DNA of 64,000 nucleotides from Mobula hypostoma. Taxonomy: Eukaryota. The stretch is from assembly GCF_963921235.1 (NCBI RefSeq), contig NC_086097.1, positions 140,494,001-140,558,000 of the forward strand, written 5' to 3'. The notes below the pieces were generated by a model, which made no database searches, was not told the DNA's origin, and saw nothing but the letters and a program-made list of their open reading frames with translations. Positions 15,370 to 64,000 of this stretch are shown piece after piece (position 1 is the first letter of the stretch; each line of letters opens with the position of its first letter). Position numbers and translations under genes: made by a program.

Positions 15370-16420
15370 TAGAAGACCTAGCTACATCTGTCTAGTTGGC
15401 TATGTGGAACAGTCATGCTCCAAATCTTCTTCAGTACCACTCTCCATTGTACTGACAGCTGCTTCCTACACCCATGTGGAACTCTTCAATTTTGTCTCTT
15501 TCACTACTAATTTCCACCTTGTTTTCAACTTCACTTGGACCATTTCTGGTCCTTCTCTCTCTTTTCTAGATCTGTGTCCAGCTCAGGAGATAAACAATCT
15601 ACTGACATTTACTATATCCACCAACTCCCACAGCTACCTAAACTACACCTCTTCCCATCCTGTCCCTTGTAAGGACGCCATCTCTTTCTCCAAATTACTC
15701 TATCCAAATCTGCTGTCAAAATGAGGCCTTCCATTCCAGGGCATTGGAAATGTCTGTTTATTTTTTAAAAAAAACAGGGAAAAATGGCTTCCCTTCTGCT
15801 GTGGTTGATGGAGACCTCTTACATTTCTTGTGTCTCAAACTTCTGCTCTCATCCCAACTACCTTCATATAGAAGAGGGATAAAGATCCCTTCTACCACAC
15901 TGGCCTCTGCATCAAGCACATTATCCTCAGTCATTTCCACAAGCTTCAATGAGGTTCCACTACTAGCTACATCTTCTCCTCAACCCTGTTCCATCTTACA
16001 CAGGGACCTCCCTCTCCCCACCCATCAGCCTAGTCACTTTCACTTGCAATCATAGGAAGTACAACACTTGTTCATACACCCCTCCCACCATCTAGCCCTT
16101 CCAGGTGAGGCAAATTTCATGTGCACCTCCTCCAATCTCACCTACTGCATTCAGTGTTCCCAGCATGGCAAAACCAAGCGTATACCAGGTGACTGTTTTG
16201 CAGAGTATCTGCACCGTTCGTAATCGCCATCATAAGCTTTCAGTTGCATGCCATTTTAATTCCCCTTCCCATTCCCACACCAACCTCTCTAACTTTGGCC
16301 TTTCCACTGCCACACTGAGGCCCTACACAAAGCAAAGGAATAACACCACCTCGTTTTTTTCCCCATCGGTAATCTACAACTCAATGGTATGAATAATGAA
16401 TTTTCCAATTTCTGGTAACC
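15370..16420 (+). mobile_element. Old Penelope-like element fragment
   Basis: PSYICLVGYVEQ, FTWTISGPSLSFLD, NSHSYLNYTSSHP and VACHFNSPSHSH are homologous to the 8165-9855 element. Confidence 0.75.
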
Positions 16421-28669: not shown

Positions 28670-29700
28670 GCAAACAAAAGCAAAAATGCTGGAAGAACTT
28701 TGCTGGTCGAACAACATCTGTGGAAGGAGAAACTGGTCAATGTTTTGGGTCAGTGACCCGTACTTAGAACTGGGAGAAAGTGAACAGAGCAAAATGTGAA
28801 ACAAAAGTCTTTACCGAGATAGGTTAAGTCAGATCAAGCAATGAGGAGCAGGGGTACTGTCATTGACAAGAGCATGGGAAATGAAGGGAGAGCTGTTTAA
28901 GATGATGTTCTTCTAATTTACCTTGGAGCTCACTATAACACAAAGGAGGACACAGAAAGACAGATCAGAATAGTAGTGGGATTGGGGGATTAAAGTAGCA
29001 TGCAACAGGAAAATCGGGAACACCCCTCTAAACAAAGTGCAGATATTCTGCAAAGTGATTACCCAATCTGCACTGATTTCTTTAGAGGAAGCTACGTTGT
29101 ACACTACATTGGTAAAGCGCAAGTGAATTGCTGCTTCAACCAGGGAGATTGCTTGGGCTAAAGGATGATGGAGGTGAATGGGCAGGTCCTGCATTTCCTC
29201 GTGTTTGCCGCAGGGGTACTATGGGATATGGAGTAGTGGGTGAAGGTGATTTTGAAAAACAATTAGTTACGAAGTGATTGGGCCCTGCAAAATGCACATA
29301 AGGGAGAAGAGGGGATGCCGTGACTGGAGGATGGGATAACATTGGAGCTGACAGAAATTGCAAAGGATAATGTAAATTTAACAAGGACAAAGGTCAGTAC
29401 CAAGAGAACTTTGTTCTGAGATGGTGAAAATGGGATTAGAGGGTCCCATCGCTCGTTGTTCAATGGCACATTTGCATCAAACCAGAGAAAATGCAACACC
29501 TGTCCATTCACCTCTTCCCATCCCACCATCCAGAGGACCAAACAATCATTCCAGGTGAATTCCTCCTAATCTAGTGCACTGCATTTGGTGCTCACAACAT
29601 GGCTCCTTTACACCAGAGGAAATAAGCACAGGGCTGGTGACAGTTTTGCCGATAATCTGCACTTATTCTGCAGGAGTGACACTGAACATCCTGCCTTATA
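28670..29700 (-). mobile_element. Old Penelope-like fragment with an inverted internal segment
   Basis: Terminal repeat AAAATGCTGGAAGAACT... at about 28680. GIY-YIG region on minus, then a related GIY-YIG segment on plus at about 29440-29700. Confidence 0.6.
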
Positions 29701-30064
29701 CTATTTCCATTTAGGCTTTTGTCTTATACCTCACATCTCCCCACTATTTTCATTCTAAAATCTCACCACTCTTCCTCCAGTTCTGACCAAACCATCAACT
29801 ACAGCATGTGCATTTTATTTGTTTTCTGAGCAATGGAACTTGGCAAATTTTCCCTACATTAGTTCAGGACACCACCACTAATTAGCATTTTCCTTTTCCT
29901 CATAAATAATCAGACATGGCAGTGAGCTTAAATACTCCTCAGTGAAAATTATGTTTAAGAAATCCATATTCCCAAGTTCTTAAAAAAGAACACTATTACA
30001 CTTGCTTTTAATCTTGGCTATTAATGTAACCCTTCCCACTATACTCAGTGATGTATCTACTTAC

Positions 30065-31279: not shown

Positions 31280-34200
31280 CTCAAAGCCTTCTACGTTTGC
31301 TTTCACCTTCAAAACAAAGAGGAACCATCATAAGCTCCCACATTCCCCACTGAAACTATGATTTCATTCTCTGAGGCCGAAGTGTGAGCAATGTTCAGGA
31401 AGGCAAACCCACGACTAGCGTCAGCCCAGATTGTCAAGTACTAAAGACCTGTGCTGATGAGCTGGTGTGTTCAATGAGATCTTTAATCTCTCGCTTTAGC
31501 AGTGTGTAGTACCCATCTGCTTGAAGTAGGCTTCAATTATACCAGTGCCCAAGAAGAGCATGGCAACCTGCCTCAATGACCATCCTCCAGTAACACTTAC
31601 ATTTACAATGAAGCGTTTTGAGAAATTGGTGATGAAGCATATCAACTCTTGCCTGAGAAGTGACTTAGATCCGCTCTAATTTGCCTACCGGAGCAACAGG
31701 TCCACAGCAGATGCAATCTCACTGGCCCTTCACTGAACCATGTGACATCTAAACAGCAAAGATGCATACATCAGGAAGCTCTTTTATCGACTACAGCTCA
31801 GCATTCAATATCATCATCTCTTCAAAGCTAATACCCTCTCCCAGTGTAGAGTACTCTCCTGCTTCAAAACATTCACCGTTGTTCCAGTACCAAAAACAGA
31901 GCAAGGGAACATGTCTGTACGACTGATGTCCTGTCGCACTTAACTCAGTAATAAGCAAATGCTTTGACAGGCTGGTCAAAGACAACATTTGCAGCATGCT
32001 ACCACCCACACTGGTACCCCTACAATTCGCCTACCGACACAACCGATCGACAGATGACGCAATAGCCACAGCTCTACACACCATCCTTACACATCTGGAG
32101 AAGGATGCTTACGTGAGAATGCTGTTTTAGGACCACAGTTCAGCATTCAACACCATAATTTCCTCCAGGATCCACAAGAAACTCAGAGAACTCGGCCTTC
32201 ACCCTGCCTTGTGTAGCTGGATCCTGGACTTACTGTCAGATCGCTGGCAGGTGGTAAGAGTGGGCTCCCTCATCTCTGCCCCTCAACACAGGTGCCCCTC
32301 AGGGATGTGTACTAAGCCCCCTCCTTTACTCTCTGTAAACCCAAGACTGTGTCGCCACCCACAGCTCCAATCTGCTAATTAAATTTTGTTGACGACACTA
32401 CACTGATTGGCCTGATCTCAAATAATAATGAGGCAGCCTATAGAGAAGTCAAGAAAACAACCTCTTCCTCAATGTTGTAAAAACAAAGGAGCTGGTTGTG
32501 GACTACAGGAGGAACGGAGACAGGCTACCTCCTATTGACATCAATGGATCTGGGGTTGAGAGGGTGAACAGCTTTAAGTTCCTCGGCATAAACATCACCA
32601 AAGATCTCACGTGGTCTGTACATACTGGCTATATGGTGAAAAAGGCACAACAGCGCTTCTTTCCCCTCAGACAGTTGTAGAAGTTTGGTATGGGCCCCCA
32701 AATTCTAAGAACTTTCTATAGGAGCACAATTGAGAGCATCTTGACTGGCTCCATCACTGCCTGGTATGGGAACTGTACTTACCTCAATCGCAGGACTCTG
32801 CAGAGAGTGGTGCGGACAGCCCAGCGCATCTGTAGATATGAACTTCCCACTATTTAGGGCATTTACAATGACAGGTGTGTAAAAAGGGCCCAAAGAATCA
32901 TTGGGGACACGAGTCACTCCAACCACAAACTGTTCCAGCTGCTACCATCCAGGAAACAGTACCGCAGCATAAAAGCCAGCACCAACAGACTCCAAGGACA
33001 GCTTCTTCCACAAGGCCATCAGACTGATTAATTCATGCCAAAACAATTGTATTTCTATGTTTTATTGACTGTCCTGTTGTACATACTATTATAAATTACC
33101 AAAAATTGCACATTGCACACTTAAATGGAGACGTAACTAAAGATTTTTACTAAATATATGAAGGATGCAAGTAATAAAGTCATAGAAACATAGAAAACCT
33201 AGAGCACGATACAGGCCCTTTGGCCCTCAAAGCTGTGCTGAACATGTCCCTACTTTAGAATTTCCTAAGCTTTACACATAGCCCTCTATTTTTCTAAGCT
33301 CCATGTAGCCATCCAGGGGTCTCTTAAAAGACCCTATCGTTTCCGACTCTACCACCGCCGCCGACAGCCCATTCCACGCACTCACCACTCTCTGCGTAAA
33401 AAAAAATTACCCCTGACATCTCCTCTGTACCTAATTCAATTCAATCTGCATGTTTCAAGACCTTGGCCCCAATACCTCCTTCTGCAGTTGAATGCTGGAT
33501 TTCCTCAATTACAGACGCCTGTCCGTTCAGATTGCCAACAACATCGCCTCCACAACCTCCATTAGCACTTGTGACTGTGTGGCTAAGCACAGCTCCAATG
33601 CCATATTCAAGGTTGCTGATGACACCACTGGTGTAGGCCATATCAAAGGTGGTGAAAAATCAGCATACAGGAGGGAGATTGAAAACCTAACTAAGTGGTG
33701 TCATAATAACAACCTCTTAATGACAGCAAGACCAAGGAGCTGATTATAGACTTCTGGAGAAGGAAATCAGAAGTCCATGAGCCAGTCCTCGTCAGAGCAT
33801 CACGACTTTAAATTCCTATGTGTTATTATTTCAGAGGACTCATCCTGGGCACAACACAAGTGCAAATACAAAGAAACCACAGCAGCACCTCTACTTCCTT
33901 AGGAGTTTGCAGAGATTTGGCTTACATCTAAAACTTTGACTTTGATAGATGTGTAGTGGAGAGTATATTGACAGGCTGCAGCTCAGCCTGGTATGGAAAC
34001 AATGCCCTTGAACTGAAAATCCTACAAAAAGTAGCGACTAATGGCCCAGACTTTCATAGGTAAAACCCTCCCAACCATTGAGGGCATCTATATGAAATGC
34101 TGTTGCAGAAAAGCAGCATCCATCATCAGGGACCCCCACCACCCAGGAAATGCTCTCCTCTTACTGCTGCCATCAGAAAGAAGATACAAGAGCCTCAGGA

Positions 34201-35169: not shown

Positions 35170-35500
35170 CTGGCCTTTTATTCCATTCTCCTCACCTGCC
35201 TATCACCTTTCCCCTGGTGCCCCCCTCTTCCCTTTCTCCCATGGTCCACTCTCCTATCAGATTTCTTCTTCTCCAACCCTATGCCTTTTCCACCTAGCAC
35301 CTTCCAGCTTTTAGCTTCATCTCTCCTGGCTTCACCTGTCACCTTCTAGCTTGTCATTCTTCTCCTACCCCACCTTTTAATTTTGGCATCTTCCCGCTTC
35401 TTTTCCAGTCCTGATAGCGTCTTGGCCCAAAACGTCAACTGTTCATTCATTTCCTTAGATGCGGCCTGACCTGTTGAGTTCCTCCAGCATTTTGTGTGTA
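35170..35500 (+). mobile_element. Penelope-like 3' fragment with a degenerate hammerhead motif
   Basis: Pyrimidine-rich PLE 3' region followed by AGTC-CTGATA-GCG...CCC-AAAACGTC-AACT and GAGTTCCTCCAGCATTTTGTGTGT. A further partial copy lies at about 35670-35770. Confidence 0.7.
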
Positions 35501-36569
35501 ATTTATTTCAGACTCAGATTTACTTATTAGTGTATTAAAACATACAGTGAAGTGTTGTTTGCATTAACCAACACACCCAACAAAGTGCTGGAGGCAGCCC
35601 ACAAGTGCCTCCACACATTCCAGAGCCACAATGTTCAGCAGAACACAAGCAATAACAACAGAACAAACTCCTTCAGGGCAAAAGGTCTCAGCCCGAAACA
35701 TCAACTGTACTCTTTTCCACAGATGCTGCCTGGCCTACTGAGTTCCTCTAGTATTATGTGCACGTTGCTAGAACAAACTCCTTTCCAACCTGCCCCATCA
35801 TACACAGACAGGCCTCCAACCTGTTCTCAGGTTCACAGAATTTTTTACTTTATCTTAAGCACCAATATAAATGTAAAACACATAAAATATAAGGGAAATG
35901 ATATACCTGTGTGCTAACAACTAAACAGGCTACACATTAAATGAATAAAACTAGCAGCTGAAGAACATCAGAACATTGAGGTTTATGAAGCCCAAGTACC
36001 AAACCATGTTTGATAGCACAACTTGAAAAATTTAATAACTTTATACAAATACAAAGTACATTAAAATATTCATTGATTTTCTCTGGCAAATATAAAATAC
36101 TTTCATCTGATTCAGAGCATTATCAGCATTACCTGCTTGAGTTAGCCTTCTATCACTTCCATTTTGGTAAAAAGCAACATAGTAACAATCTATAACATCA
36201 AAATCTGACATAAATCCATTTAACAATGCCCATGACATTTGAAAACCTCCATGCTACGCACCAACACATTCTTCAAGCTTTTATACAAATACCTAACAAA
36301 CATCAGTCTTGAATATACTGAATAAATTAGCCATCCAGAGGTAGACAACTCTGAAGCTTTCCAACCATCTGGGGAAAGATATCTCTCTTCACCTTAGGTC
36401 AAATGAGATAACCTATTGTTTTTTCTGAATTTCTGCAAGTATAGCCCAAATATCTTCAATTGGTCTTGAAATGCTGCAAACCTAAGTTACACTGACTCCA
36501 AATCTTCCTCAGATAGGGAAACTTAAATTGTACAAAATATGTTATATCATAACTCCTGTACTACCTCAG

Positions 36570-41319: not shown

Positions 41320-41448
41320 AACGCTCACAATGCGCTGGAGGAACTCAGCAGGTCAGTCAGCATCAGTTGAAAAGATCAGTCGACGTTTCGGGCCGAAACC
41401 CTTCGTCGGGACTGAAGGAAGAACTTTGGGGAGGGTTTGAAGAATGCT
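41320..41448 (-). mobile_element. Solo Penelope-like terminal repeat with a hammerhead-like motif
   Basis: Flanked by 13-bp direct repeats GGTTTTTACCTGG / GGTATTTACCTGG (one mismatch). Homologous to the other PLE termini in the window. Confidence 0.8.
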
Positions 41449-41479
41449 GGTATTTACCTGGTTTTACCTGGTTCTTTTG

Positions 41480-42960: not shown

Positions 42961-43094
42961 ATCAAAAGTCTGGATCTGGTACGAAACAGGAAATGTTGAA
43001 AACATTCAGCAGGCCAGACGTCACATGTGGAAGGAGAACAGTTAAACTTTTCAGGTAGAGGTGGATGCTTTCCGAAGGTCCTCAATGTGAAAAG

Positions 43095-44315
43095 TTTATA
43101 CTTTATACTTTATTGTCGCCAGACAATTAATACTAGAACGTACAATGATCATAGCGATATTTGATTCTGCGCTTCCCGCTCCCTGGATTACAAATCGATA
43201 GTAAATATTAAAAATGTAAATTATAAATCATAAATAGAAAACATAAAAATGGAAAGTAAGATAGTGCAAAAAAACTGAGAGGCAGGTCCAGGTATTTGGA
43301 GGGTACGGCCCAGATCCGGGTCAGGATCTGTTCAGCAGTCTTATCACAGTTGGAAAGAAGCTGTTCCCAAATCTGGCCATACGAGTCTTCGAGCTCCTGA
43401 ACCTTCTCCCAGAGGGAAGAGGGACGAAAAGTGTGTTGGCTGGGTGGGTCGTGTCCTTGACTATCTTGGCAGCACTGCTCCGACAGCGTGTGGTGTAAAG
43501 TGAGTCCAAGGACGGAAGATTGGTTTGTGTGACGTGCTGCGCCGTGTTCACGATCTTCTGTAGCTTCTTCCGATCTTGGACAGGACAACTTCCATACCAG
43601 GTTGTGATGCACCCGAGAAGAATGCTTTCTACGGTGCATCTATAAAAATAAGTGAGGGTTTTAGGGGACAGGCCAAATTTCTTTAGTTTTCTCAGGAAGT
43701 AAAGGCGCTAGTGGGCTTTCTTGGCAGTGGACTCTGCTTGGTTGGACCAAGTCAGGTCATTTGTGATATTGACCCCGAGGAACTTAAAGCTTTTGACCTG
43801 TTCCACTTGCGCACCACCGATGTAAATTGGGTTGTGCGGTCCGCTACTCCTTCTGAAGTCAACAACCAATTCCTTCATCTTGCTGACATTGAGGGATAGG
43901 TTATTGTCTTCGCACCATGCCACCAGGTTCTTAATTTCCTCTCTGTACTCAAACTCATCATCACCCGAGATACGGCCTACAATCAGCAAACTTATATATT
44001 GAGTTCGATGGAAACTTGGCTACACAATCATGGGTGTACAGTGAGTATAGCAGGGGGCTGAGTACACAGCCTTGTGGGGCACCGGTGCTCAGAGTGATTG
44101 TAGAGGAGAGCTTGTCCTCTATTTTTACAGCCTGGGTCCTGTCTGTGAGGAAGTTGAAGATCCAGCTGCAGATCTGAGTGCTAAGGCCTAGGTTCCGGAG
44201 CTTAGGAATCAGTTTATTTGGAATGATGGTATTAAAGGCAGAGCTGTAGTCAATGAAAAGGAGCCTTACATATATGTCTTTATTCTCCAGGTGTTCTAAG
44301 GAGGAATGTAGGGTT
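43095..44315 (-). mobile_element. Rex1/Babar LINE, 3' portion
   Basis: [48 protein letters not shown] and SFFPTVIRLLN motifs. AATAAA plus short tandem tail at about 43095-43115. Confidence 0.88.
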
Positions 44316-44719
44316 TCTCTTTCCATAAAATATGCCTGTTTTTCCAGCATGACCAAACGTGCTGAATATTTGCAAGATGTTTTATTGTGTCCACCCATTC
44401 TAGAAATAGCACGTTGAAAATACAGTGCAGCACAAGTATTTTCAGCGTTTATATTGTGCTGGGATATGTTGGAAATCTCCCCTCTTACAGTTCTTTTGAT
44501 TCAGGTTTTCAGCAGGGTGAAGGGAATAATTTCCCTTCCTATAATAGCAGTTAGTTTCTTGCGAGCAATTAACCCCTAATCAATGGAATACGCAGGAGGT
44601 TTCTGAAAAAATTACAGGTGAAAAGACTGTTAAAACAATATGCGCCATTTATTTTTAGGAACATAACCTGATTAACTAGTGTAAAATCGACTTTATTGTC
44701 ATATGCACAAGTACAACAT

Positions 44720-47700
44720 ATCATAGGTGCAGATTCTGTGGATGTGAACGGGACCCCTGGATGGTATGTTGCCTCCCAGGTGCCAGGGTCAGGGACGTCT
44801 CAGATCGCGTCCACAACATTTTGGAGAGGCGGGAGAGCAGCCAGATATCTTGGTACATATTGGCACCAATGACAGAGGAAGAAAAAAACAAAGAGGTCCT
44901 GAAAAGAGATTTTAGAGAGCTAGGTAGAAAGCAGTGAAGCAGGACCTCCAGGATAGTAAATTCTGGATGGCTGTCTGTGCCACACGTGAGTGAGGGTAGA
45001 AACAGCACAACATTGGCAGATAAATGCGTGGCTGAGAAGCTGGTGCCAGGGCCAAGGCTTCAGGTTCTTGGGTCACTGGGATCTCTTCTGGGGGAGGTAT
45101 GACCTGTTCAAAAGTGACAGGTTGCACCTGAACCTGAGGGGGACCAATATTCTCGTGGGCAGGTTTGTTAGAGCTTTTGGGGAGCATTTAAACTAATTTG
45201 GCGCGGTGGGAGTGGGAACTGGATTGATGGGACTCAGGATATTACATATGGTAAAAGGGTAAAGATAGCATGCAGTCAGATTGTCAGGAAGGGCAGGCAG
45301 GTGATGGGACATAGTCATAGGCAATAGGGTGAGTATCAGTACATTAGGGATGCAAAATCAAAAAGGGTAGCAAATACAGTACTTAAGGTGTTGTATCTCA
45401 ATGTGTGGAGCATAACAAATAAGGTGGATGACCTTGTTGCACTATTACTTGCCAGATATGATGTTGTGGCCATCACTGAATCGTTGCTGAAGGATGGCTT
45501 TCATTGGGAGCTGAATGTCCAAGGTTACACTCTGTATCATAGGGACAGGAAGGTAGGCAGAGGGGGTGACGTGGCTCCATAGTTAAAAAATGGCATCTAA
45601 TCATTAGAAAGATGTGACATAGGATTGGAAGATGTTGAATACTTGTGGGTTGAGTTAAGAAACTGCAAGAGTAAAAGGACGTTGATGGCAGTTATATATA
45701 GGCCTCCAAACAGTGGCTGGGAGGTGGACCACAGATTACAATAGGAAATAGAAAAGGCCTGTCAAAAGGGCAATGTTATGGTAGTCACGGGAGATTTTAA
45801 CATGCAGGTTGATTGGGTAAAATCAGGTTGGTAAAGAATCTCAAGAGAGTGAGTTTGTTGAATTCTTAAGAGATGGCTTTTTAGAGCAGTTTGTCGTTGA
45901 GCCTACTAGGGGATCAACTATACTGGATTGGGTGTTATGTAATGAACAATGAACTGGAGATGATTAGGGAGCTTAAGGTAAAAGAATCCTTAGGAACCAG
46001 TGACCACAATATGATTGTGTTCAACTTGAAATTTGATAGGGAGAAAGTAAAGTCTGATGTAGCAGTATTTCAGAATCAGAATCAGAATCAGGTTTATTAT
46101 CACCAGCATGTGACATGAAATTTGTTAACTTAGCTGCAGCAGTTCACTGCAATACATAACCTAGCAGGGAGAAAGAAAAAAATAAATAAATAAAATAAAA
46201 CATAATAATAAACAAGTAAATCAATTACGTGTATTGAATAGATTTATTAAGATGTGCAAAAAACAGAAATACCATATACAGATTTTTTTTTTAAAGTGAG
46301 GTAGTGTCCAAACTTCAATGTCCATTTAGCAATCGGACGGCAGAGGGGAAGAAGCTGTTCCTGAATCGCGGAATGTGCGCCTACAAGCTTCTGTATCTCC
46401 TGCCTGATAGTAAAAGTGAGAAAAGGGCATGCCCTGGGTGCTGGACGACCTTAATAATGGACACTGCCTTTCTGAGACACTGCTCCCTAAAGATGTCCTG
46501 GGTACTTTGTAGGCTAGTACCCAAGATGGAGCTGATTAGATTTACAACCCTCTGCAGCTTCTTTCGGTCCTGTGCAGTAGCCCCTCCATACCAGACAGTG
46601 ATGCAGCCTGTCAAAACGCTCTCCATGGTACATCTATAGAAGTTTTTGAGTGTATTTGTTGACATGCCAAATCTCTTCAAACTCCTGATAAAGTATAGCC
46701 GCTATCTTGCCTTCTTTATGACTACATCGATATGTTGGGACCAGGTTAGATCCTCAGAGATCTTGACACTGAGGAAATTGAAGCTGCTCACTTTGTCCAC
46801 TTCTGATCCCTCTATGAGGATTGGTATGTGCTCTTTTGTCTTACCCTTCCTGAAGTCCACAATCAGCTCTTTTGTCTTACTGACGTTGAGTGTCAGGTTG
46901 TTGCTGCAGCACCACTCCACTAGTTGGGATATCTCACTTGTCTGAGTTAAATTCTGTCAATCATTTCTTTGCCCTCTTTCAAGCCAATTATCTCACTCCT
47001 GTACGCCCTCTCGTCACCACCTGAAAATCTACCAACAATGGTTGTATCGTCAGCAAATTTGTAGATCGTACTTGAGCTATGCCTAACCACACAGTCATGT
47101 GTATAGAGACAGTACAGCAGTGGAATAAGGGAAATTACAGTGGTATGACAGGGTAATAGGCCTAAGTAAATTGGGAGGAGCTGCTGGCAGGGGTGTCAGC
47201 AGAGCAGCAATGGTGTGCATTTCTGAGAAAAATGAGGAAGGTGCAGGACATGTGTATTCCAAAAATGAAGAAATACTCAAATGGCAAAATAGTACAACCA
47301 TGGCTGAGAAGGGAAGTCAAAGTTAATGTAAAAACAAAAGCTTACAGAGTGCAACTAAAAGAATGATTAGTAAGGAAAAGATGCAATATAAAAGCAAGCT
47401 AGCAAATAATATCAAAGTAATAGTAAAAGCTTTTTCAAATTTGTAAAAAATAAAAAGAGATGAGAGTGGTTATAGGACCACTAGAAAATGAGGCAGGAGA
47501 AATAATAACGGGGGATAAGGAGCTGACAGATGAACGAAATGAGTATTTTGCATCAGTCTTCACTGTGGAAGACACAAGCAGTGTGCCAGATGTTGTCGTG
47601 TGTGAAGGAAGAGAAGTGGGTACAGTTACTATTACAAGGGAGAAGGTGCTCAAAAAGCTGAAAGACCTAAAAGTACATAAGTCACCAGGACCAGATGAAG

Positions 47701-49220
47701 TTCTGAAAGAGGTAGCATTAGAGATTGTGGTGGCATTAGCAATGATCTTTCAAAAATCATTGGACTCTGGCATGGTGCCAGAGGACTGGAAAAATGCAAA
47801 TGTCACCCCACTCTTTAAGAAAGGAGGAAGGCAGCAGAAAGGAAATTATAGACCAGTTAGCCTGACCTCAGTGGTTGGGAAGATGTTAGAGTCAATTGTT
47901 AGGACGGGGTGATGGAGTACTTAGTGACACAGGACAAGACAGGACAAAGCCAGCATTGTTTCCTTAAGGGAAAATCCTGCCTGATGAACCTGTTGGAATT
48001 CTTTGAGGAGATTACAAGCAGGATAGATAAAGGGGATGCAGAGGCTGTTGTATATTTAGACTTTCAGAAGGCCTTTGACAAGGTGCCACACATGAGACTG
48101 CTGAACAAGTTAAGAGCTCGTGGTATTACAGGAAAGTTTCTCAGATGGTTAGAGCATTGGCTGATTGGTGGGAGGCAGTGAGTGGGAATAAAAGGATCCA
48201 TGTCTGCCAGTGACTAGTGGTGTTCCGCAGGGTTCGGTGTTGGGACCACTTCTTTTTATGCTGTATATAAATGATTTAGGTGATGAAATAGTTGGCTTTG
48301 TTGCCAAGTTTGCAGATGATACAAAGATTGGTGGAGGGGCAGGTTGTGTTGAGGAAACAGGTAGGATGCAGAAGGACCTAGACAGATTAGAAGAATGGGC
48401 AAGAAAGTGGCAAATGAAATATAATGTTGGAAAATGCATGGTCATGCACTTTGGCAATAGAAATAAATGGAAAAACAGAAAATCCAAAAATCTGAGATGC
48501 AGAGGGGCTTGGGAGTCCTTGTGCAGAACACCCTGAAGGTTAACTTGCAGGTTGAAGTGGTGGTGTGGAAGGCAAATGCAATGTTAGCATTCAATTCAAG
48601 AGGACTATAATAAAAGAGTGGGGATATGATGCTGAGGCTTTATAAGGCACTGGTGAGGCCTCACCTTGAGTATTGTGAACAGTTTTGGGCCCCTCATCTT
48701 AGAAAAGATGTGCTGGCATTGGAGAGGGTCCAGAGGAGGTTCACAAGGATGATTCCAGGAATAAAAGAGTTACCATACAAGGAACGTTTGATAGCTCTGG
48801 GTCTGTACTTGCTGGAATTTAGAAGGATGAGGGGGAATCCCATTGAGACCTTTCGAATGTTGAAAAGCCTAGACAGAGTAGATGTGGAAAGGATGTTTCC
48901 CATGGTGGGAGAATCCAGGACAAGAGGTCAGGATAGAGGGGCATCCATTCAAAACAGAGATGCGGATAAATTTCTTTAGCTAGAGGCTGGTGAATTCATG
49001 GAATTCGTTGCCACATGCAGCTGTGGAGGCCAGGTTGTTGGGTGTATTTAAGGCAGAGATTGATACAGTAGGTTCCTGATTGGACATCACATCAAAGGTT
49101 ACGGGGAGAAAGCTGAGAAATGGGATTGAGGAGGAGAAAAAAAAGATCAGCCATGATTAAATGGTGAAGCAGACTCGATGGGCCAAATGGCCTAATTCTG
49201 CTCCTATGTCTTACGGTCTT
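44720..49220 (+). mobile_element. Long CR1 LINE (ORF1 esterase-like C-terminus, ORF2 APE and RT), degenerate and interrupted by Rex1
   Basis: FRFLGHWDLFWGRYDLFKSDRLHLN (ORF1). LYLNVWSI...VAITES (APE). [37 protein letters not shown] and FADDTK (RT). 3' tail TCTTACGGTCTTAT. Confidence 0.92.
46074..47120 (-). mobile_element. Rex1/Babar LINE 3' fragment inserted in CR1
   Basis: (GATTCT)n tail at about 46074-46091. WCCSNNLTLNVSKTKELIVDFR and ESVLTGCITVWYG motifs. The host CR1 rejoins as GTATTTCAG|TGGAATAAGGG. Confidence 0.88.
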
Positions 49221-49439
49221 ATATGAAAAACTTACTTGCAGCAAATTCATAGGCCTCATATAAACAGCATTAACAAGAAAAACATAAATTAAGCATAACT
49301 TATACACAATTTTATGTATGAATAAAAATATTGTGTTCGGCCAAACTTCCTCTTTGGAAATGCCACCATTTTCAGCAACTGGTTTGCTCAATGTACTGTC
49401 ACTGCTATACTTTGTGACTCCATCACACAGATTCAGGAT

Positions 49440-50395
49440 CAGAAATAATATCCCCAGATTACTGATAATCAACACTGGCGTACCTCAAGGATGTATGCTT
49501 AGAACACTGCTCTACTCTTTCTACACCCATGACTGTGTAGCTAGGCACAGCTCAAATGCCATCTATAAATTTGTTGGCAATGCAACTACGGTTGGCAGAA
49601 TTTCAGATGGTGACGAGAAGACGTACAAGAGTGAGGTATGTAAGCTAGTTGAGTGGTGTCACAGCAACAAGCTTGCATTCAACATCAGTAGGACCAAAGA
49701 ATTGATTGTGAACTTCAGAAGGGGTAAGATGAAGGAACATACACGAGTGTTCATAGAGGGATCAGAAGAGGAAATAGTGAGCAATTTCAAGTTCTTGTGT
49801 GTCAATATCTTTGAGGATCTATCCTGGGCCCAACTTATCAATTTACCTACAAAGAAGACACAATAACAGCTATATTTCATTAGGAGTTTAAGGAGATTCG
49901 GTATGTCACCAAAGACACTCGTAAATTTCTACAGATATACCAAGGAGAACATTCTAACTGGCTGCATCACCACCCGATATGAGGAAGGCGGCCTGCACAA
50001 GATCGAAATAAGCTCTTGAAAATTGTGAACTCAGTCAGCTCCATTATGGACACTAGCTTCCCCAGCATCAGAACACCTTCAAGGTGCACTGTCTCAGAAA
50101 GGCAGCATCCATCATTAAGGACCCCCATTGACCAGAACATGCCCTCTTCTCATTTCTACCATCAGGGAGGAGGTACAGGAACCTGAAGGCACCACTCAAT
50201 GATTTGGGATCAAATATCAGATTCCAGAATGGAGATTGAACACATGCCTACCTCCTGACTTTTTTTACACTATTTATTTAACTTATAAATAAATAATACT
50301 TACTGTAATGCAGTTTTTATTATGTATTGCAATGTACTGCTGCCACATAACAACAAATTTCACGGCATATGCTTGTGATATTAAACCTGATTGAA
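49440..50395 (+). mobile_element. Rex1/Babar LINE 3' fragment
   Basis: NTGVPQGCML...YTHDCVARHSSNAIYKF and RTKELIVNFR. Ends ATTAAACCTGATT. Confidence 0.85.
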
Positions 50396-52514
50396 GTTAA
50401 TGTATTATTCTAATTGCAATATACAAAATAATAATTTGTACAGAAGTGGAGGATCCAAGATTATGAAGATTGCAAAATTGTCTGTGTCTGATAAAGTAAA
50501 AAAAAAATAGGCTGCAGAAAGACGATAATAGTCCGGAAAGATGTATACAAGTGACAGTCAATTTCTTGCCCTTGACCTCACCTTTTTTTCCCTGTCCTGA
50601 TGGGGGGGGGGGGGGCCTCGGCCTGGGGCGTTGATGGTGCTCTTTTTGGTGGATGCTGCCTGGCCTGTTGAGTTCCTCCAGCATCTTCAGATTTTCTGTT
50701 GCTTGCGATTGGACCAGTGGACCATGCTTAGTCTGTCCTTTACCCTTTGACCTGCTTGGCATGGATGACCCTATTAAAGCCAAAGTATAAAGCCCTGACT
50801 GCAGGTAGTGTAGTTCTCTGGATAATTGAGACACGAAAGCCTCCAAACCACAACAAGGTTCTGTGACCATGCTCACTAATCCACCAATTTTTATTTATAT
50901 ATTTATTTTTGCTGGCTATATGTGTCCAGTTTTTATATATAATATTTACACTTGTCCTATTCACAAAGAACTGAGGCCTGAGCACTGGTCCTCATTGGTA
51001 ACCAGAATAATATCCTTCCACCACTACTGTCTTCTATGGTCAAGCAAAATTTGAAAGCAATCTATGAAACTTCCATTCATCCTGTGTCCCTTATTTTTTG
51101 CATCAGCCTACTATGTGGGAATCTTTTCACAAGCTATACCGAAGTCCGTTTATGCAGCATCTACTACTCTATCTCATTAATCATCTTTGTCACCTTCTCA
51201 GAGAAACTCAATTAAGGTTTCCAAACCTTGCCATTCTTGTGTTTCTTGCTCAGGAACATGTTTGGTCCTGAATTCTGCTCATCTGTTCTTTAACACTTCC
51301 ACTTAGGTCCAGACTTGTGCCCTCCACAAGTATCTGAAAACCCATGGCATTTGATAACTGTTCCAAAAATGCTTCCCCACAGAAACTCCAATTACCTGAT
51401 TTAGCTTTGCAATAGTAAATGATTTATAGCCTCTAAGACACCAGTTAGTGCTCCTCTTGTTTTATGTATTTTTCCTCAGCATGACAAAGTTTTAGTTTAT
51501 TTTTTGTTAGGCAGGTCAATGCTGAAGTGGTTGGAAAAGATCTTTTTCGTTTATAGTAAGAGTTGGAACCACACCTTTCTGATTGAGGCTAGGGTGCCAC
51601 CAATTTATGCAATTCGACTTGTAAACCATTTCTATGCTTTGTAATGGGTCTTATTGGCCAAAGGATCTACTTGGAGTACTCACTGTATCTAACCCAGGAG
51701 ATTCTGCAGGTGCTGGAAATCTTGAGCATTACACACACAAAAAATGCTGGAGGAACTCAGCAAGTCAGGCACCATTTCTTAATAAACAGTTGATGTTTTG
51801 CAAAGAAACCATTCATCTACTTTCCCTAGTGCTGCTTTCAGTTCAGAAATTTGGCAGTAATTTAAAATCACTTGTACATTCAAATTATTCTCAAATTTGG
51901 CACGAATTTTACTGACTTCACTGTTTTGTGTAAGGGTTATGTATTTCCAAGTGGGATTTTTCAAAAGCTAGAGGGGGAAAAATAAGTTGATGTGCTCAAA
52001 AGACTGAAGTTGAAGTCATGAAACAAAAATATTGCTAAAGAGATGATGGAAGTTTTCAGTTTTCTAACTGCTGAAAGCTCAAATCTCTGGTAAAGAAGTT
52101 ACATTGAGTGTCACCAATCTTGGCCTAATTCAGAACATTTTCTAGCTTATGTCCAGGAAGTAAGAACCGCGGAATGAATGAAAGAAGGTGGTCATTGATC
52201 AGTATTGTAGTTTGGATAATCTGTTGCTGAGGGATGAAAGTCAATCTCAAGATTTCTTTCTTGAGATTGAGTGACCAGTAAACATCTTTTTGACACCTGC
52301 AAACTTGCATAGAGTGCTACACTTACACGTTAAGTGTACATGCAAGAACCTATTATTAATTTCACATTGGATGTCAGTGAATTTAAAAAATACAATTGTT
52401 ACTCTGGCAAATAGTTTAGAGTTAAAGTAAATGGTCCTGCTGTCAATTGTTACAACTGCAAGTTTCTTGTTAAAAATATACAATGACTTCAGTGGAAGGA
52501 TCACTACAGGAAGG

Positions 52515-53440: not shown

Positions 53441-53751
53441 GTAAGTGAACCAGTGAGAGGGGAATGAAGCAGGATGTTGGCCGAGCTGGCTGGCCGGGCG
53501 GCCAGGAATTGGAGGCACACACTGAAATGCGGTATCCACTGGAGGTGATCAGCCTGCTTGAAGTGCAAGTGTGAGATAGACTTCCTGTTCTTACAAGCAA
53601 GAAATGCAGGAAACACTTAGTATCCAAAGGAGAAAGACAGACAGACTTTTCAGCATTTCTAATTATTATTTCAGATTTCTAGCTTTCCTATATAATCCCC
53701 GGACTTGTTCGAATTGACCCTCTTATGTACAGGCCACTTTACTCTAACCTT

Positions 53752-54464
53752 AGGAATTCTGCAGATGCTGGAAATTCAAGCAACACACATCAAAGTTGCT
53801 GGTGAACGCAGCAGGCCAGGCAGCATCTCTAGGAAGAGGTACAGTCGACGTTTCAGGCCAAGACCCTTCGTCAGGACTAACTGAAGGAAGAGCTAGTAAG
53901 AGATTTGAAGGGGGAGGGGGAGATCCAAAATGATAGGAGAAGACAGGAGGAGGAGGGATGGAGCCATACCATGGCCTCCTCTACTGTAAGGATGAAGCCA
54001 CACTCAGGTTGGAGGAACAACACCTTATATTCCGTCTGGGTAGCCTCCAACCTGATGGCATGAACATTGACTTCTCAAACTTCTGATAATGCCCCACCTC
54101 CCCCTCGTACCCCATCCGTTATTTATTTATATATGCACATTCTTTCTCTCTCCTTTTTCTCCCTCTGACTATACCCCTTGCCCATCCTCTGGGTTCCCCC
54201 CTCCCCCTTTCCTTCTCCCTGGGTCTCCTGTCCCATGATCCTCTCTTATCCCTTTTGCCAATCACCTGTCCAGCTCTTGGCTCCATCCCTCCCCTTCCTG
54301 TCTTCTCCTATCATTTTGGATCTCCCCCTCCCCCTCCCACTTTCAAATCTCTTACTAGCTCTTCCTTCAGTTAGTCCTGACGAAGGGTCTCAGCCCAAAA
54401 TGTCGACCGTACCTCTTCCTAGAGATGCTGCCTGGCCTGCTGCGTTCACCAGCAACTTTGTGTG
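53752..54464. mobile_element. Self-inverted Penelope-like insertion with 13-bp TSD
   Basis: Minus-strand terminal repeat (53752 to about 53965) joined to a plus-strand GIY-YIG C-terminus, 3' region and terminal repeat. TTACTCTAACCTT at 53739-53751 and 54465-54477. Confidence 0.88.
53843..53878 (-). ncRNA. Minimal type I hammerhead ribozyme motif
   Basis: Minus strand reads AGUC-CUGACGA-AGGGUCUUGGCCU-GAAAC-GUC-GACU: intact CUGANGA and GAAA boxes, stem I AGUC/GACU, palindromic ACGU helix III and a GUC cleavage triplet. Activity untested. Confidence 0.7.
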
Positions 54465-55308
54465 TTACTCTAACCTTGGTGGGTGTATCAAACCCTGTCT
54501 TTTTTTATTTAGATCAGAATCAGCCTTATTATCACTGACATCTGTTGTGAAATTTGTTTGTTTTGCAGCAACAATACATTGTAGGGCATTAAATTACTGG
54601 AAGTTACAAAACAAAAGTAGTGCAAACAAGGATTAACAAGCTCGTGTTCATGGACCATTCAGAAATTAGGGGGAAAAGTTGCACCTAAAACATTGGTTAT
54701 AGGTCTTCAGGCTCCTGTATTTCCTCCCTGGTGATGGTAAAAGAAGAGGGCATTCCCCAGATGGTGAGTGCCCTTTATGATGGATGGCATCTTCTTGAGG
54801 CACTGCCCCTTGAAGGTGTCTTCTGGTGGGGAGGATTGTACCTGTGATGGATCTGGCCAAATCTACAGCCCTCTGCAGCTTCTTGTGATCCTGTCAATTG
54901 AAGCCTCCATACCAATCTATGATACAACTAGACAAAATGCTCTCCACCATATGTCTATTAAAATTTACAAAAGAGTCATGGTGACATGCAAAGCTCCTCG
55001 AACTCCTAATGAAGTAGAGCTGCTTATATGCATTTTTTGTGGCTACATCAGTTATGTTGGGTCCAAGATAGATTCTGTTGAGCTGTTGATGGCCAAGAAC
55101 AATCCTCGAGTTGTTGATGCCCAGGATCCTGAAGCTCCTCATCCCTTCCACCTGTGTGTGTCGCCACCCAAGGCACCAATCTGCTAATTAAATTTGCTGA
55201 CGGCACTACACTGATTGGCCTAATCTCAAATAATACTGAGTCAGCATACAGAGAAGTCGTCACCACCCTGACACAGTGGTGTCAAGAAAACAACCTCTCG
55301 CTCAATGT

Positions 55309-57887
55309 ACTATGGACATGTGGTCGATGTTTAGAGATCTCTTGCAGGATGTTAGGGATAAATTTGTCCCGGTGAGGAAGATAAAGAATGGTAGGGTGAA
55401 GGAACCATGGGTGACAAGTGAGGTGGAAAATCTAGTCAACTGGAAGAAGGCAGCATACATGAGGTTTAGGAAGCAAGGATCAGATGGGTCTATTGAGGAA
55501 TATAGGGAAGCAAGAAAGGAGCTTAAGAAAGGGCTGAGAAGAGCAAGAAGGGGGCATGAGAAGGCCTTGGTGAGTAGGGTAAAGGAAAACCCCAAGGCAT
55601 TCTTCAATTATGTGAAGAAAAAAAGGATGACAAGAGTGAAGGTAGGACTGATTAGAGGTAAAGGTGGGAAGATGTGCCTGGAGGCTGTGGAAGTGAGCCA
55701 GGTCCTCAATGAATACTTCTCTTCGGTATTCACCAATGAGAGGGAACTTGATGATGGTGAGGACAATATGAGTGAGGTTGATGTTCTGGAGCATGTTGAT
55801 ATGAAGGGAGAGGAGGTTTTGGAGATGTTAAAATACATTAGGACGGATAAGTCCCCGGGGCCTGATGGAATATTCCCCAGGCTGCTCCACGGGGCAAGGG
55901 AGGAGATTGCTGAGCCTCTGGCTAGGATCTTTATGTCCTCGTTGTCCACAGGAATGGTACCGGAGGATTGGAGGGAGGCGAATGTAGTCCCCTTGTTCAA
56001 AAAAGGTAGTAGGGATAGTCTGGGTAAATTATAGACCAGTGAGCCTTGCGTCTGTGGTGGGAAAGCTGTTGGAAAAGATTCTTAGAGATAGGATCTATGG
56101 GCATTTAGAGAATCATGGTCTGATCAGGGACAGTCAGCATGGCTTTGTGAAGGGCAGATCGTGTCTAACAAGCCTGATAGAGTTCTTTGAGGAGATGACC
56201 AGGCATATAGATAAGGGTAGTGCAGTGGATGTGATCTATATGGATTTTAGTAAGGCATTTGACAAGGTTCCACACGGTAGGCTTATTCAGAAAGTCAGAA
56301 GGCATGGAATCCATGGAAGTTTGGCCAGGTGGATTCAGAATTGGCTTGCCTGCTGAAGGCAGAGGGTGGTGGTGGAGGGTGTACATTCAGATTGGAGGAT
56401 TGTAACTAGTGGTGTCCCACAAGGATCGGTTCTGGGACCTCTACTTTTCGTGATTTTTATTAATGACCTGGATGTGGGGATAGAAGGGTGGGTTGGCAAG
56501 TTTGCAGACGACACAAAGGTTGGTGGTGTTGTAGATAATGTAGAGGATTGTTGAAGATTGCAGAGAGACATTGATAGGTTGCAGAAGTGGGCTGAGAAGA
56601 GGCAGATGAAGTTCAACCTGGAGAAGTGTGAGGTGGTACACTTTGGAAGGACAAACTCCAAGGCAGAGTACAAAGTAAATAGTCATAGTCATACTTTATT
56701 GATCCTGGGGGAAATTGGTTTTCGTTACAGTTGCACCATAAATAATTAAATAGTAATAAAACCATAAATAGTTAAATAGTAATATGTAAATTATGCCAGG
56801 AAATAAGTCTAGGACCAGCCTATTGACTCAGGGTGTCTGACCATCCAAGGGAGGAGTTGTAAAGTTTGATGGCCACAGGCAGGAATGACTTCCTATGACG
56901 CTCTGTGTTGCATCTCGGTGGAATGAGTCTCTGGCTGAACGTACTCCTGTCCCACCCAGTACATTATGTAGTAGGTGGGAGACATTGTCCAAGATGGCAT
57001 GCAACTTGGACAGCATCCTCTTTTCAGACACCTCCGTCAGAGAGTCCAGTTCCATCCCCACAACATCACTGGCCTTACGAATGAGTTTGTTGATTCTGTT
57101 GGTGTCTGCTACCCTCAGCCTGCTGCCTCAGCACACAACAGCAAACATGATCGCGCTGGCCACCACAGACTCGTAGAAATGGCAGGATACTTGGTAGTGT
57201 GGAGGAGCAGAGGGATATGGGGGTACATTTCCACCAATCTCTGAAAGTTCCCTCACAGGTGGATAGGGTAGTTGAGAAAGCTTATGGGGTGTTAGCTTTC
57301 ATAAGTCAAGGGATAGAGTTTAAGAGTCGCGATGTAATGATGCAGCTCTATAAAACTCTGGTTAGGCCACACTTGGAGTACTGTGTCCAGTTCTGGTCCC
57401 CTCACTATAGGAAGAATGTGGAAGCATTGGAAAGAGTACAGAGGAGATATACCAGGATGCTGCCTGGTTTAGAGAGTATGCATTATGATTAGAGATTAAG
57501 GGAGCTAGGGCTTTACTGTTTGGAGAGAAGGAGAATGAGAGGAGACATGATAGAGGTGTACAAGATAATAAGAGGAATAGATAGAGTGGATAGCCAGCGC
57601 CTCTTCCCCAGGGCACCACTGCTCAATACAAGAGGACATGGCTTTAAGGTACGGGGTGGGAACTTCAAGGGGGATATTAGAGGAAGGTTTTTTACTCAGA
57701 GAGTGGTTGGTGCGTGGAATGCACTGGCTGAGTCAGTGTTGGAGCCAGATACACTGGTGAAATTTAAGAGACTACTAGACAGGTATATGGAGGAATTTAA
57801 GGTTGGGGGTTATATGGGAGGCAGGGTTTGAGGGTCGGGACAACATTGTGGGCCGAAGGGCCTGTACTGTGCTGTACTGTTCTATGT
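55309..57887 (+). mobile_element. 5'-truncated CR1 LINE (RT)
   Basis: [34 protein letters not shown] and FADDTK motifs. TCAATGT duplicated at 55302-55308 and 57888-57894. Confidence 0.93.
56681..57176 (-). mobile_element. Short Rex1-like 3' fragment inserted in CR1
   Basis: AATAAA plus (TATGAC)n tail on minus. YESVVASAIMFAVVC peptide. AAAT duplicated at the junctions. Confidence 0.8.
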
Positions 57888-60374
57888 TCAATGTCGCAAA
57901 AACAAAGGAGCTGGTTGTGGACTACAGGAGGAATGGAGACAGGCTAACCCCTATTGACATCAATGGTTCTGGGGTTGGGAGCGTGAACAGCTTTAAGTTC
58001 CTCGGCTTAAACATCACCAAGGATCTTGCGTGGTCTGTACCAGCTGTGTGATGAAAAAGGCACGACAGCACCTCTTTCACCTCAGACGGTTGAAGGAGTT
58101 TGATGTGGGCCCCCAAATCCTAAGAACTTTCTATAGGGGCACAATTGAGAGCATCCTGACTGGCTGCATCACTGTCTGGTATGGGAACTGTACTTCTCTC
58201 AATCGCAGGACTCTGCAGATAGTGCTGCAGACAGCCCAGCACATCTGTAGTTGTGAACTTCCCACTGTTCAAAGGCAGGTGTGTAAAAAGGGCCTGAAGG
58301 ATCATTGGGGACCCGAATCACCCCAACCACAAATTGTTACAGCTGCTACATCGGGGAAACGGTACCGCAGCATAAAAGCCAGGACCAACAGGCTCCTGGA
58401 CCACTTCTTCCACCAGGCCATCAGACTGATTAATTCATGCTGACACAACTGTATTTCTCTGTTATATTGACTGTCCTGTTGTACATACTATTTATTATAA
58501 ATTACTATAAATTGAACATTGCACTTTTAGACAGAGACGTAATGTAAAGATTTTTACTCATGTATATGAAGGATGTAAGTAATAAAGTCAATTCAATTCA
58601 ACTCAACCGCCCAATCTGTCTCACAACTGTACTTGTCTGAGATTCTGCCGACAACAATGGTGATTTCTGCAAATCTCTGGATGGTATTTGAGCTGTGCCT
58701 AGCTGCGCAGTCCTGGAGTAGAGCAGTGGGCTAAACACATTCTTGAGATGTGCCTGTGTTGATTGCCAGCAAGGAAGAGACATTGTTACCAATCTGCTTT
58801 GACTGTGGTCTCCCATTAAGGAAGTCGGAAGATCCATTTTTTGAGGGAGGTGCAGTAGCCCAGGTTTTGAAGCTTGTTGATTAGTATAGAGGGGATGATG
58901 GTTTTGAATGCCGAGTGCCAAGCTGTAATCAATAGCCTACACGTATGTTTTGCTGTTGGCTAGGTGCTCCAAAGCTGAGTAGAGTGCTAATGAGATTGCA
59001 TACTGTTGTGGTGGGAGGCAAATTGCAACCAAGCAATTGTCTTGAGTAAGTACACTCTGCTCTTCTTGGCCACAAATATGATTGATGCCAGGACATCAGC
59101 AACAATGGCTTGTCTTTCCCTTTTTTGAATGGGTACCTGAGATGTCCACCTCTCAAGATGCCAGTTGTGGTCCTTTGCAATATCAGATAAAGGTTTGGCA
59201 GCAGTTTCAAAGTGACCTGATGATACCCAGTTATGCCTCATCAGCACTTCCCTTGATCTATACACTGCCTCTTAAAATCTGATTGTTTGCACAACATTGA
59301 ACAGAAATTTCTCAAACCTGCACCAGACTTTTCCAGACTTTGGTGTTTTATTTGATGTCATTACCACAATGGTTTGTTTCTTGCTGTATGGCATCACCTG
59401 AAACCAGCCCATCTCGGTTCACCGATGTGTATGATTGCCTCTGAATTTAAAATATGTAGTGAGCTACCCCGCTTCATTTTCTCTCACCCCCCTCTCCCAC
59501 CCAAACATGTGCTAGAGGCGTGTGGCAGTCTGCTCCAGGTCCTATTCGACTGTGTTGGTCGTTGATGTAAATGATGCATTTCATTGTATGTTTTGATGTA
59601 CATATGACAAACAAGCCCAAATTTTAATCTTTAAAATACACTTATTTTGGTTGCTAGTCTACTGTAAAAATTGTTGTCAAATCCCTACTTGTCTTTAACC
59701 TAATCTAACCCTACAATCCAGTGATTTTCTGTTTGTATAAAATCTGCACTTTTACAATTCTGAACTCTCCATTTTCCCCACTTTTAATAGGTGATATAGC
59801 TTCACTTGCAAATATTCTACTTTCAAGGTATCTTTCTGTCTGTCCATTATGGCATTTCCTTATGGGATTCTTTGTCTCATATTGCTTACTAATGTTCCCA
59901 TGAAGTACTCTACATATGGTGCCACACAAAATGCTGTAGAAATGCAAGTTTTGTAAACCATGTCTTAAGCAAAGCCAAACATGGCTCTCATTTGAGGTGA
60001 TGTTTGTGGTTTTTACTGAAAAGTTGAAAATCAAATTGTTTGCATGTTCCAGAATGGTGCAATTAGAACAATACAACATGGGAAGATCCTTCATCCTGGG
60101 ATGTTGCACTGAACTAATTAAGATAATGAACCTATTCCCTTCTGCTTGCTCATGGTCTGTTTCACACCATCCCTGCATTTTATTATATGTATCTAAGAGC
60201 CTCTTAAACACCTTTATTGTATCTGCCTCCAACAAACAACTCGGCACCAGTTTGGTCATTGTACATAGGGCAAGAAATAGACTAGAAGTGCATCTAGGTG
60301 ACCAAAGTTCAGGCTCTGAATTTATAAGGTAAGGAGAATGAGTAAAGTTAATCTTTCTTTGCAGCTTAATTTTA

Positions 60375-63119: not shown

Positions 63120-64000
63120 TTTGTCTCTGACCAAGAGAACTGATCAACTGGCTGGAATGTGCACTGAGATCTTTAACCTCTCGCTTCAGCACTCTGAGGT
63201 ACCCACCTGTTTCAAGCAGGTTTCAGTTATACTGGTGCCTAAGAAGACACTGGTAACCTGCCTCAAAGACTATTGTCCAGTAGGACTTGCATCCACGGCG
63301 ATGAAGTATTTTGAGATGTTGTTGATGAAACATATCAATCCTACCTGAGAAGCAACTTTGATCTGCTCCAGTTTGCTTCTCAGCAACAACAGATCCGCAG
63401 CAGATGCCATTTCATTGGCTTTTCGCTCAACCTTGGAACAGCTGGACAGCAAAGATGCATGTATCAGGATGCTGTTTATCAACTACAGCTCAGCATCAGT
63501 ACTATTATACCTTCTAAACTAATCAATAAGCCTCAAGACCTTGGCCTCAATACCTCTTTGTGCAGTTGGATCCTCAATTTCTTCACTTGCAGACCCCAGT
63601 AGTTTGGACTGGCAACAGCATTTCTTCCACAATCTCCGGCAGCACAGGTGCACCGAAAGGCTGTGTGCTTAGTTCCCTGCTCTACTTCCCTTACGCTTAT
63701 GACTGGGTGGCTAAGCACAACTCCAATGGCATATTTATGTTTGCTGATGACACCACTGTAGTTGGCCGAATCAAAGGTGGTGAAGAATCACCATATAAGG
63801 AGACTGAAAATCTGGCTGAGTGGTGCCACAACAACAGACTCTTACTCAATCTCAGCAAGACTAAGGAGCTGATTACTAACTTCAGGAGGAGGAAACCAGA
63901 GGTCCATGAGCCAGTCCTCTTTGGGTGATCAGAGGTGGAGAGGGTCAGCAACTTTAAATTCCTTGGTGTTATCATTTCCGAGGACCTGTCCTGGGCCCAG
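63120..64000 (+). mobile_element. Rex1/Babar LINE, runs off the window
   Basis: EIFNLSL...PTCFKQ...VPKK, TGAPKGCVLS, FADDTTVVG and SKTKELI motifs. Confidence 0.88.

Follow-up and report, generated by a model that had tools for sequence, protein, structure and literature searches.

Minimal type I hammerhead ribozymes (min-HHR) are known in the pseudo-LTRs of metazoan Penelope-like elements (PLEs), including the fish elements Xena, Poseidon and Neptune (Cervera and De la Pena 2014, PMC4209133). In the accessible part of that report, single minimal motifs show no cleavage in vitro and dimers show low cleavage; the available text of a recent preprint counts one of nine dimers as cutting (bioRxiv 10.64898/2026.07.22.740005). 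A U4C change in the core is described as lowering activity considerably (PMC3088659, in its accessible portion). The hammerhead of an anole PLE cuts only with the element's protein, and cutting is dispensable for insertion in vitro (PMC11167929, likewise a partial text). Traits of PLE insertions include an inverted truncated arm and a 30-40 bp tail at one end (PMC8557442, excerpts), and such a tail has been explained by two internal reverse-transcription start sites (PMC11167929). The locus analysed here is thus known in kind since 2014, and it extends the class to a ray genome.

Within a 64-kb stretch of the Mobula hypostoma genome (the window), the original prediction placed an intact-core hammerhead on the minus strand at 53843-53878. 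This was borne out: none of the 12 core positions differs and both stems pair. The parts of the motif are as follows.

53843-53878, minus strand: minimal type I hammerhead motif, core intact, with a G10.1-U11.1 wobble (from sequence, pattern and descriptor searches)
53875-53878, minus strand: stem I, 5′ arm
53868-53874, minus strand: core C3-A9
53867, minus strand: extra unpaired A after A9 (between 9 and 10.1)
53855-53866, minus strand: stem II, 4 pairs and a 4-base loop
53851-53854, minus strand: G12-A15.1
53850/53849, minus strand: palindromic C15.2/G16.2
53848, minus strand: U16.1
53847, minus strand: C17
53843-53846, minus strand: stem I, 3′ arm
between 53847 and 53846, minus strand: predicted cut site

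The core (C3 U4 G5 A6 N7 G8 A9, G12 A13 A14 A15.1, U16.1 H17) is complete. Stem I forms four of four pairs and stem II four of four, two of them G-U, in a type I topology with a palindromic helix III that has no loop. The normally conserved G10.1-C11.1 pair is here a G-U wobble, a CpG-type change; the pair is G-C in the majority sequence of the repeat copies and in 4 of the 12 copies in the window. That majority sequence holds every core position as well as stems I and II, an additional nucleotide following A9, the G10.1-C11.1 pair and palindromic 15.2-16.2. By its sequence features, 53843-53878 belongs to the PLE min-HHR.

A degenerate 36-nt pattern allowing up to three mismatches finds three sites in the window, at 41378-41413 (-), 53843-53878 (-) and 54373-54408 (+), and gives no match in 100 shuffles. 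A structure-based descriptor with no core mismatch returns 53843-53878 alone and adds 41378-41413 when one mismatch is permitted, with no match in five shuffled windows at zero or one core mismatch. A repeat profile recovers 12 copies in the 64 kb and no copy when the window is reversed. The 12 comprise all 11 positions given for the roughly ten predicted recurrences of the PLE terminal repeat, plus 43004-43056, a weak match (E 0.003). Rfam yields no hammerhead match in the whole window (E ≤5) or in 53780-53940 (E ≤10). The prediction that standard annotation overlooks the motif therefore stands for Rfam, although the class as such is already published. Pattern scans for copies in metagenome contigs, viral contigs and prokaryote genomes gave no match, as expected for a vertebrate repeat.

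The prediction also made the repeat a terminal repeat of a PLE, with a minimal type I hammerhead whose helix III is palindromic; the motif features and the linkage to GIY-YIG ORFs both support this. Three GIY-YIG ORF ends, at 54086 (+), 8562 (-) and 28989 (-), have terminal repeats with the motif downstream of them. The order of reverse transcriptase (RT) followed by C-terminal GIY-YIG is visible in a broken remnant at 8161-9870 (-) (tblastn with the PLE proteins P0001, P0003 and P0006), which contains the RT motif region, thumb, CX4CxxC linker, GIY-YIG and 3′ UTR. The endonuclease part of this remnant shares 71% identity with a protein of Mobula hypostoma, the one match among 13 candidates. 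In this protein an RT catalytic motif is present, and Pfam matches GIY-YIG at E 0.00046, just short of the cutoff. It has 18,649 relatives at E ≤0.001; among ten examined, three are named, all from Hypanus sabinus. Pfam detects RVT_1 in all of four longer relatives and GIY-YIG in three of them, and finds no relevant family in five window fragments. A CX2-5CxxC linker is present in 97 of the 103 relatives with a scorable endonuclease motif, as well as in the 8161-9870 remnant. Given the description of this linker in the accessible text of PMC8557442, it points to a C-terminal-endonuclease PLE of the Neptune/Nematis type.

The window also contains seven coding exons of BBS9/PTHB1 (7396-30913, minus strand, residues 1-293), 80-98% identical to a stingray protein, with 98% over one exon. 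Three PLE-repeat loci lie in BBS9 introns and the motif is broken in all three; counted from the first coding exon of BBS9, the 53843-53878 copy is 23 kb upstream. A remnant of a more distant PLE family occupies 15377-16412 (+), with about 37% identity to P0001 and a pyrimidine-rich 3′ region; no hammerhead module is recognisable after it.

The motif at 53843-53878 sits in the inverted arm of a single 713-bp, 5′-truncated PLE insertion spanning 53752-54464, with the following anatomy.

53739-53751, no strand: 13-bp target-site duplication, left copy
53752-53966, minus strand: inverted, 5′-truncated terminal-repeat arm carrying the motif
53752-53784, minus strand: 33-nt tail, in the inverted arm only, with the family 3′ end at 53752
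53969-54086, plus strand: C-terminal end of the GIY-YIG endonuclease ORF, with stop (tblastn)
54087-54464, plus strand: pyrimidine-rich 3′ UTR and direct terminal-repeat arm, ending without a tail
54373-54408, plus strand: second motif of the insertion, broken (G12A, C15.2U and one stem I mismatch)
54465-54477, no strand: 13-bp target-site duplication, right copy

A duplication of 13 bp is reached by 1 of 1994 random window pairs. P0001 residues 331-414 match the 53969-54086 region at 76% (tblastn, E 3e-31), with the last ~39 codons present. The tail is confined to the inverted arm in both of the inverted pairs (53752-54464 and 25125-25325). Contigs from three sequencing runs depart from the reference at 53752 with 638, 502 and 64 loose ends, which marks this position as the family end. 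The repeat 3′ of the motif (53752-53830, minus strand) is predicted to form a long hairpin with a U/G-rich loop at the position of the shorter 3′ end; this hairpin is a candidate reverse-transcription start site. Another abundant short repeat lies to the right of the insertion (54506-54593 and 54682-54750), with raised depth and loose ends at 54558.

The remaining copies in the window are listed below.

8161-9870, minus strand: longest PLE remnant, in a BBS9 intron, with frameshifts and stops and a broken motif near 8225-8260
25125-25325, no strand: short inverted pair joined within the motif, both motifs broken, tail on the minus-strand arm only
28683-28778, minus strand: decayed copy belonging to a more distantly related sister family (profile)
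35396-35500, plus strand: copy with a pyrimidine-rich upstream UTR; 2-nt core deletion and G12A
35674-35769, plus strand: 96-bp insertion beginning inside the motif, with a 14-bp target duplication (35660-35673 / 35770-35783)
41320-41461, minus strand: solo insertion of ~140 bp with a 10-bp target duplication; motif at 41378-41413, U4C its sole core difference
43004-43056, minus strand: weak old copy, absent from the earlier list (profile, E 0.0028)
50585-50687, plus strand: decayed copy whose motif contains a run of G
51690-51816, minus strand: copy cut inside the motif, with a tail

No target duplication is recognised at the 25125-25325 pair, the 8161-9870 remnant or the 50585 copy, and matches of 8 bp at 35407 and 51800 were rejected as target duplications. 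None of the 12 copies in the window forms a head-to-tail tandem unit. PLE endonuclease pieces at 28989-29334 (-) sit ~210 nt upstream of the 28683-28778 copy. Stem II of this copy (the 28760 copy) is fully Watson-Crick over five pairs, and upstream of it lies an inverted pair of distant-family PLE linker/endonuclease pieces, 28989-29707. Other repeats in the window include LTR-retrotransposon-like pol remnants at 241-3612 (+), with Pfam matches to RT, RNase H and integrase within two ORFs, and many LINE-type RT fragments of several families, some as inverted pairs (6206-6787, 32348-34195, 43961-44500, 46379-50190, 55240-58492 and 63151-63795). An inverted repeat at 23084-23321, with 105-nt arms that are 90% complementary, a 28-nt spacer and a chance-level Rfam miRNA match, is possibly a MITE.

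A family of working ribozymes is unsupported in the window, where 11 of the 12 copies either carry an altered core or break off within the motif. The core is intact at 53843-53878 alone; the 41378 copy differs by U4C only, and the 54373 copy carries G12A and C15.2U. Each of the other nine shows two to five differences in the core or is truncated within the motif, the counts for the cut copies 25233, 35674, 51800 and 43050 being partly alignment artefacts. These four of the 12 were left out of a rate comparison on the eight motif-spanning copies, in which 12 of 77 non-CpG core cells are changed against 27 of 254 in the downstream repeat (p 0.23). The core is no better kept than the downstream repeat, a comparison in which old copies, 12 in all and from more than one subfamily, give low power to show or exclude selection. 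CpG cells are changed at 19/63 against 34/221 for non-CpG cells (p 0.01).

The two arms of the 53752-54464 insertion differ at 8 of 181 aligned bases, six of them within the 36-base motif (p 0.0009), and five of these six fall on consensus CpG sites. This makes the motif the part of the repeat that decays fastest, and the intactness of the 53843-53878 copy would reflect a young insertion, not selective retention. The 36-base majority motif holds four CpGs, against a window average of 0.48 per 36 bases (observed/expected 0.30), a richness that is no more than suggestive of constraint on master elements.

Covariation, proposed as a check on the stems, did not rise above chance: the observed score was reached by 61 of 500 shuffles, although this is a weak test with only 12 decayed copies. 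On the same 12 decayed copies, stem cells are paired at 73.9% against 69.6% when shuffled, a value that 36 of 500 shuffles reach. One could read this result, the missing Rfam match and a folding z-score of -0.82 as signs that the resemblance to a hammerhead arose by chance at the repeat end, which would never have been a ribozyme in this lineage. That reading is scarcely credible, since the majority sequence is complete in hammerhead features and lies at the PLE position reported for them (PMC4209133, accessible part), and the pattern and descriptor controls returned no matches.

Whether the intact copy could act where it lies is a separate matter. For the 53843-53878 monomer, the best predicted fold is off-path and its z-score is unremarkable. 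The predicted active dimer reaches -9.5 kcal/mol against -30.1 kcal/mol for an off-path duplex. In a minus-strand read-through transcript, stems I and II have a pairing probability of 0.0, while pairing between the motif and the antisense arm averages 0.97 (ViennaRNA). A transcript starting between the arms escapes this duplex, yet is predicted to be off-path as well (stem I 0.045, off-path helix 0.81). ViennaRNA models secondary structure without the hammerhead tertiary core, and these energies lower the expectation of activity but cannot exclude it. As for partners, the same-strand neighbours are the broken 51690-51816 copy and the U4C-bearing 41378 copy 12.4 kb away, and the second motif within the insertion (54373-54408) is on the opposite strand and broken. 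On these predictions, the 53843-53878 copy is probably inert in its place.

It is accordingly very unlikely, in our estimate, that intact dispersed copies work as ribozymes on host or read-through RNA, be it as monomers, by pairing in trans or with the help of protein. The intact core and both stems at 53843-53878 speak for such activity, as do the very high abundance of the family, which would supply partners in trans, and the cutting of the anole PLE hammerhead once the element's protein is added (PMC11167929, in part). Against it stand the uncut single minimal motifs and weak dimers reported in vitro (PMC4209133, in part), the broken or distant U4C state of the nearest same-strand copies, and the broken motifs at all three loci in BBS9 introns. 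The preference predicted for the off-path duplex over the active dimer, and masking by the antisense arm, would weigh in the same direction.

The abundance of the PLE family, also predicted, is supported by contigs at the locus. Contigs matching 1.3 kb around it number 229,040 in one DNA run and 212,216 and 87,395 in two other organisms. Summed depth over the repeat runs into millions, against ~15 for the unique-flank contig, depth here indicating abundance and not copy number. Three of four runs show loose ends at 53878, which suggests that what sister families have in common is limited to the motif and the sequence downstream of it. Among contigs of the two other organisms, none spans the insertion stretch for an orthology or empty-site check. 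One contig covering 53492-53759 at depth 2, from a run presumed to be RNA, was not used as evidence of expression.

Short non-autonomous forms, by contrast with what was predicted, are not shown here: the short copies (insertions of ~96, ~140 and 713 bp) have differing 5′ ends and separate target duplications. Differing 5′ ends and these lengths, together with the ~1.7 kb remnant, are what 5′-truncated insertions would give, and judged by sequence the short copies resemble truncations more than members of a non-autonomous family. Sequence 5′ of the cut site is present in all 11 well-aligned copies and none has its 5′ end at the cut site, so that their templates were uncut there, in agreement with the use of uncut RNA as template described for the anole element (PMC11167929, accessible part).

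We nevertheless considered that the short copies might be true non-autonomous families that the PLE protein mobilises, either as retrozyme-like repeats or as short inverted units that have been amplified. Joints from one arm to the other recur near the motif in several runs (among the joints listed, 53878 to 54382 in 4/4 and 53859 to 54373 in 2/4), single contigs with such joints reach a depth of ~400 against ~15 for the unique-flank contig, and the 25125-25325 pair has the inverted joint form. Non-LTR retrozymes derived from PLE ends have also been reported, one chondrichthyan genome included (bioRxiv 10.64898/2026.07.22.740005, available text). The joints are heterogeneous, however: among 15 listed (1343 more exist), nine fall at the motif and these comprise nine different position pairs. 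Their detection is moreover biased to the motif region, which together with the sequence after it is all that sister families appear to share. The short copies in the window have different 5′ ends and none is tandem, and depth is not a copy number. Such families are on balance unlikely. Quite unlikely, too, is a more specific scheme in which the hammerhead end of the ray PLE would seed short self-complementary non-autonomous units, with inversion junctions accumulating at the ribozyme because its stems favour fold-back in the course of reverse transcription, certain junction forms being re-amplified as families, motifs of separate transcripts pairing in trans thanks to the very high copy number, and inverted arms acting as antisense switches. 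Were it true, the genome would be a large natural dataset on PLE hammerhead cutting in vivo.

Very probably, then, 53843-53878 is a min-HHR of the 3′ pseudo-LTR of a Neptune/Nematis-type PLE, its dispersed copies being passive and neutrally decaying and this one inert. The motif, copy set, insertion anatomy, PLE linkage and decay pattern were observed directly; what we infer is that the master cuts as a dimer or with protein help, that two nicks prime reverse transcription at two sites of the RNA, and that the dispersed copies are neutral. In this account, a C-terminal-endonuclease PLE of the Neptune/Nematis type would have amplified massively in the ray genome. In a full-length tandem master, by analogy with known elements, two motifs would pair via the palindromic helix III, probably helped by protein, and cut after C17; the window holds no full-length or tandem master copy, and the two-motif arrangement is an assumption. 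The dispersed copies would be passive by-products of the master element. On uncut RNA, reverse transcription would begin downstream of the cut site, at ~60 or ~93 nt, and mostly end prematurely, and priming from both target nicks would leave an inverted arm with a tail and a direct arm without one, flanked by a duplication of 10-14 bp. After insertion the CpG-rich motif would decay neutrally, and the 53843-53878 copy would owe its intactness to youth rather than retention and would most likely be inert in place.

As it stands the finding is of little importance, extending a class described in 2014 to a ray and showing that Rfam misses the motif. Cutting was dispensable for insertion in vitro in the accessible account of PMC11167929, and the abundance of this family would permit a statistical test of whether insertion 5′ ends pile up at the cut site, of which the window offers no instance (0 of 11 well-aligned copies). 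On the motif in sharks and rays, the literature searched gave only the 2026 preprint, with one chondrichthyan genome; most subscription papers, Repbase and supplements fell outside that search.

Comparison with described systems places the ray motif closely, here taking each cited report in its accessible part. Like the min-HHR of PMC4209133, it has a type I layout, a short stem I, no helix III loop and a palindromic 15.2-16.2 pair, an unpaired base after A9 and, in the majority sequence of the window family, G10.1-C11.1. That report likewise describes thousands of mostly single copies from truncated PLEs, as well as opposite-strand pairs 100-700 bp apart, an arrangement matched by 53843/54373. 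The host here is a ray, whereas bony fishes, coelacanth, Xenopus and reptiles are named there, and a shark or skate term was not found in two of its three supplementary files. Stem II is short here (4-5 bp), and the copy number appears far above the 4,000-9,000 given there. Set beside domesticated intronic hammerheads of the RECK/HH9 type, defined by a canonical type I motif kept at an orthologous intron position, the motif gives no Rfam match and lies upstream of the first coding exon of BBS9, at a distance of 23 kb. With non-LTR retrozymes (PMC7229834; bioRxiv 10.64898/2026.07.22.740005) it shares a type I hammerhead related to PLE pseudo-LTRs and dispersed monomers, and it differs in that 0 of 12 copies are tandem, in having no canonical loop 1-loop 2 architecture and in its linkage to PLE ORF remnants.

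Among the PLEs themselves, the Anolis carolinensis Poseidon element PAc (Frangieh et al. 2024, PMC11167929) resembles the ray element in its two 3′ ends ~30-40 nt apart with an optional tail, in a hammerhead upstream of the initiation region, and in copies that span both sides of the cut site. The putative initiation region of the ray element is U/G-rich on the RNA strand whereas that of PAc is AC-rich, and the CX2-5CxxC linker present here is absent from Poseidon (PMC8557442). The 10-14 bp duplications of the ray element lie in unique sequence, with a microsatellite target at none of the three resolved insertions, which sets it apart from Neptune/Nematis (Craig et al. 2021, PMC8557442). With these elements it nonetheless shares an RT followed by a zinc-finger-like linker and then GIY-YIG at the C-terminus, as well as 5′ truncation, an inverted truncated arm, a tail at one end and a hammerhead near the 3′ end.
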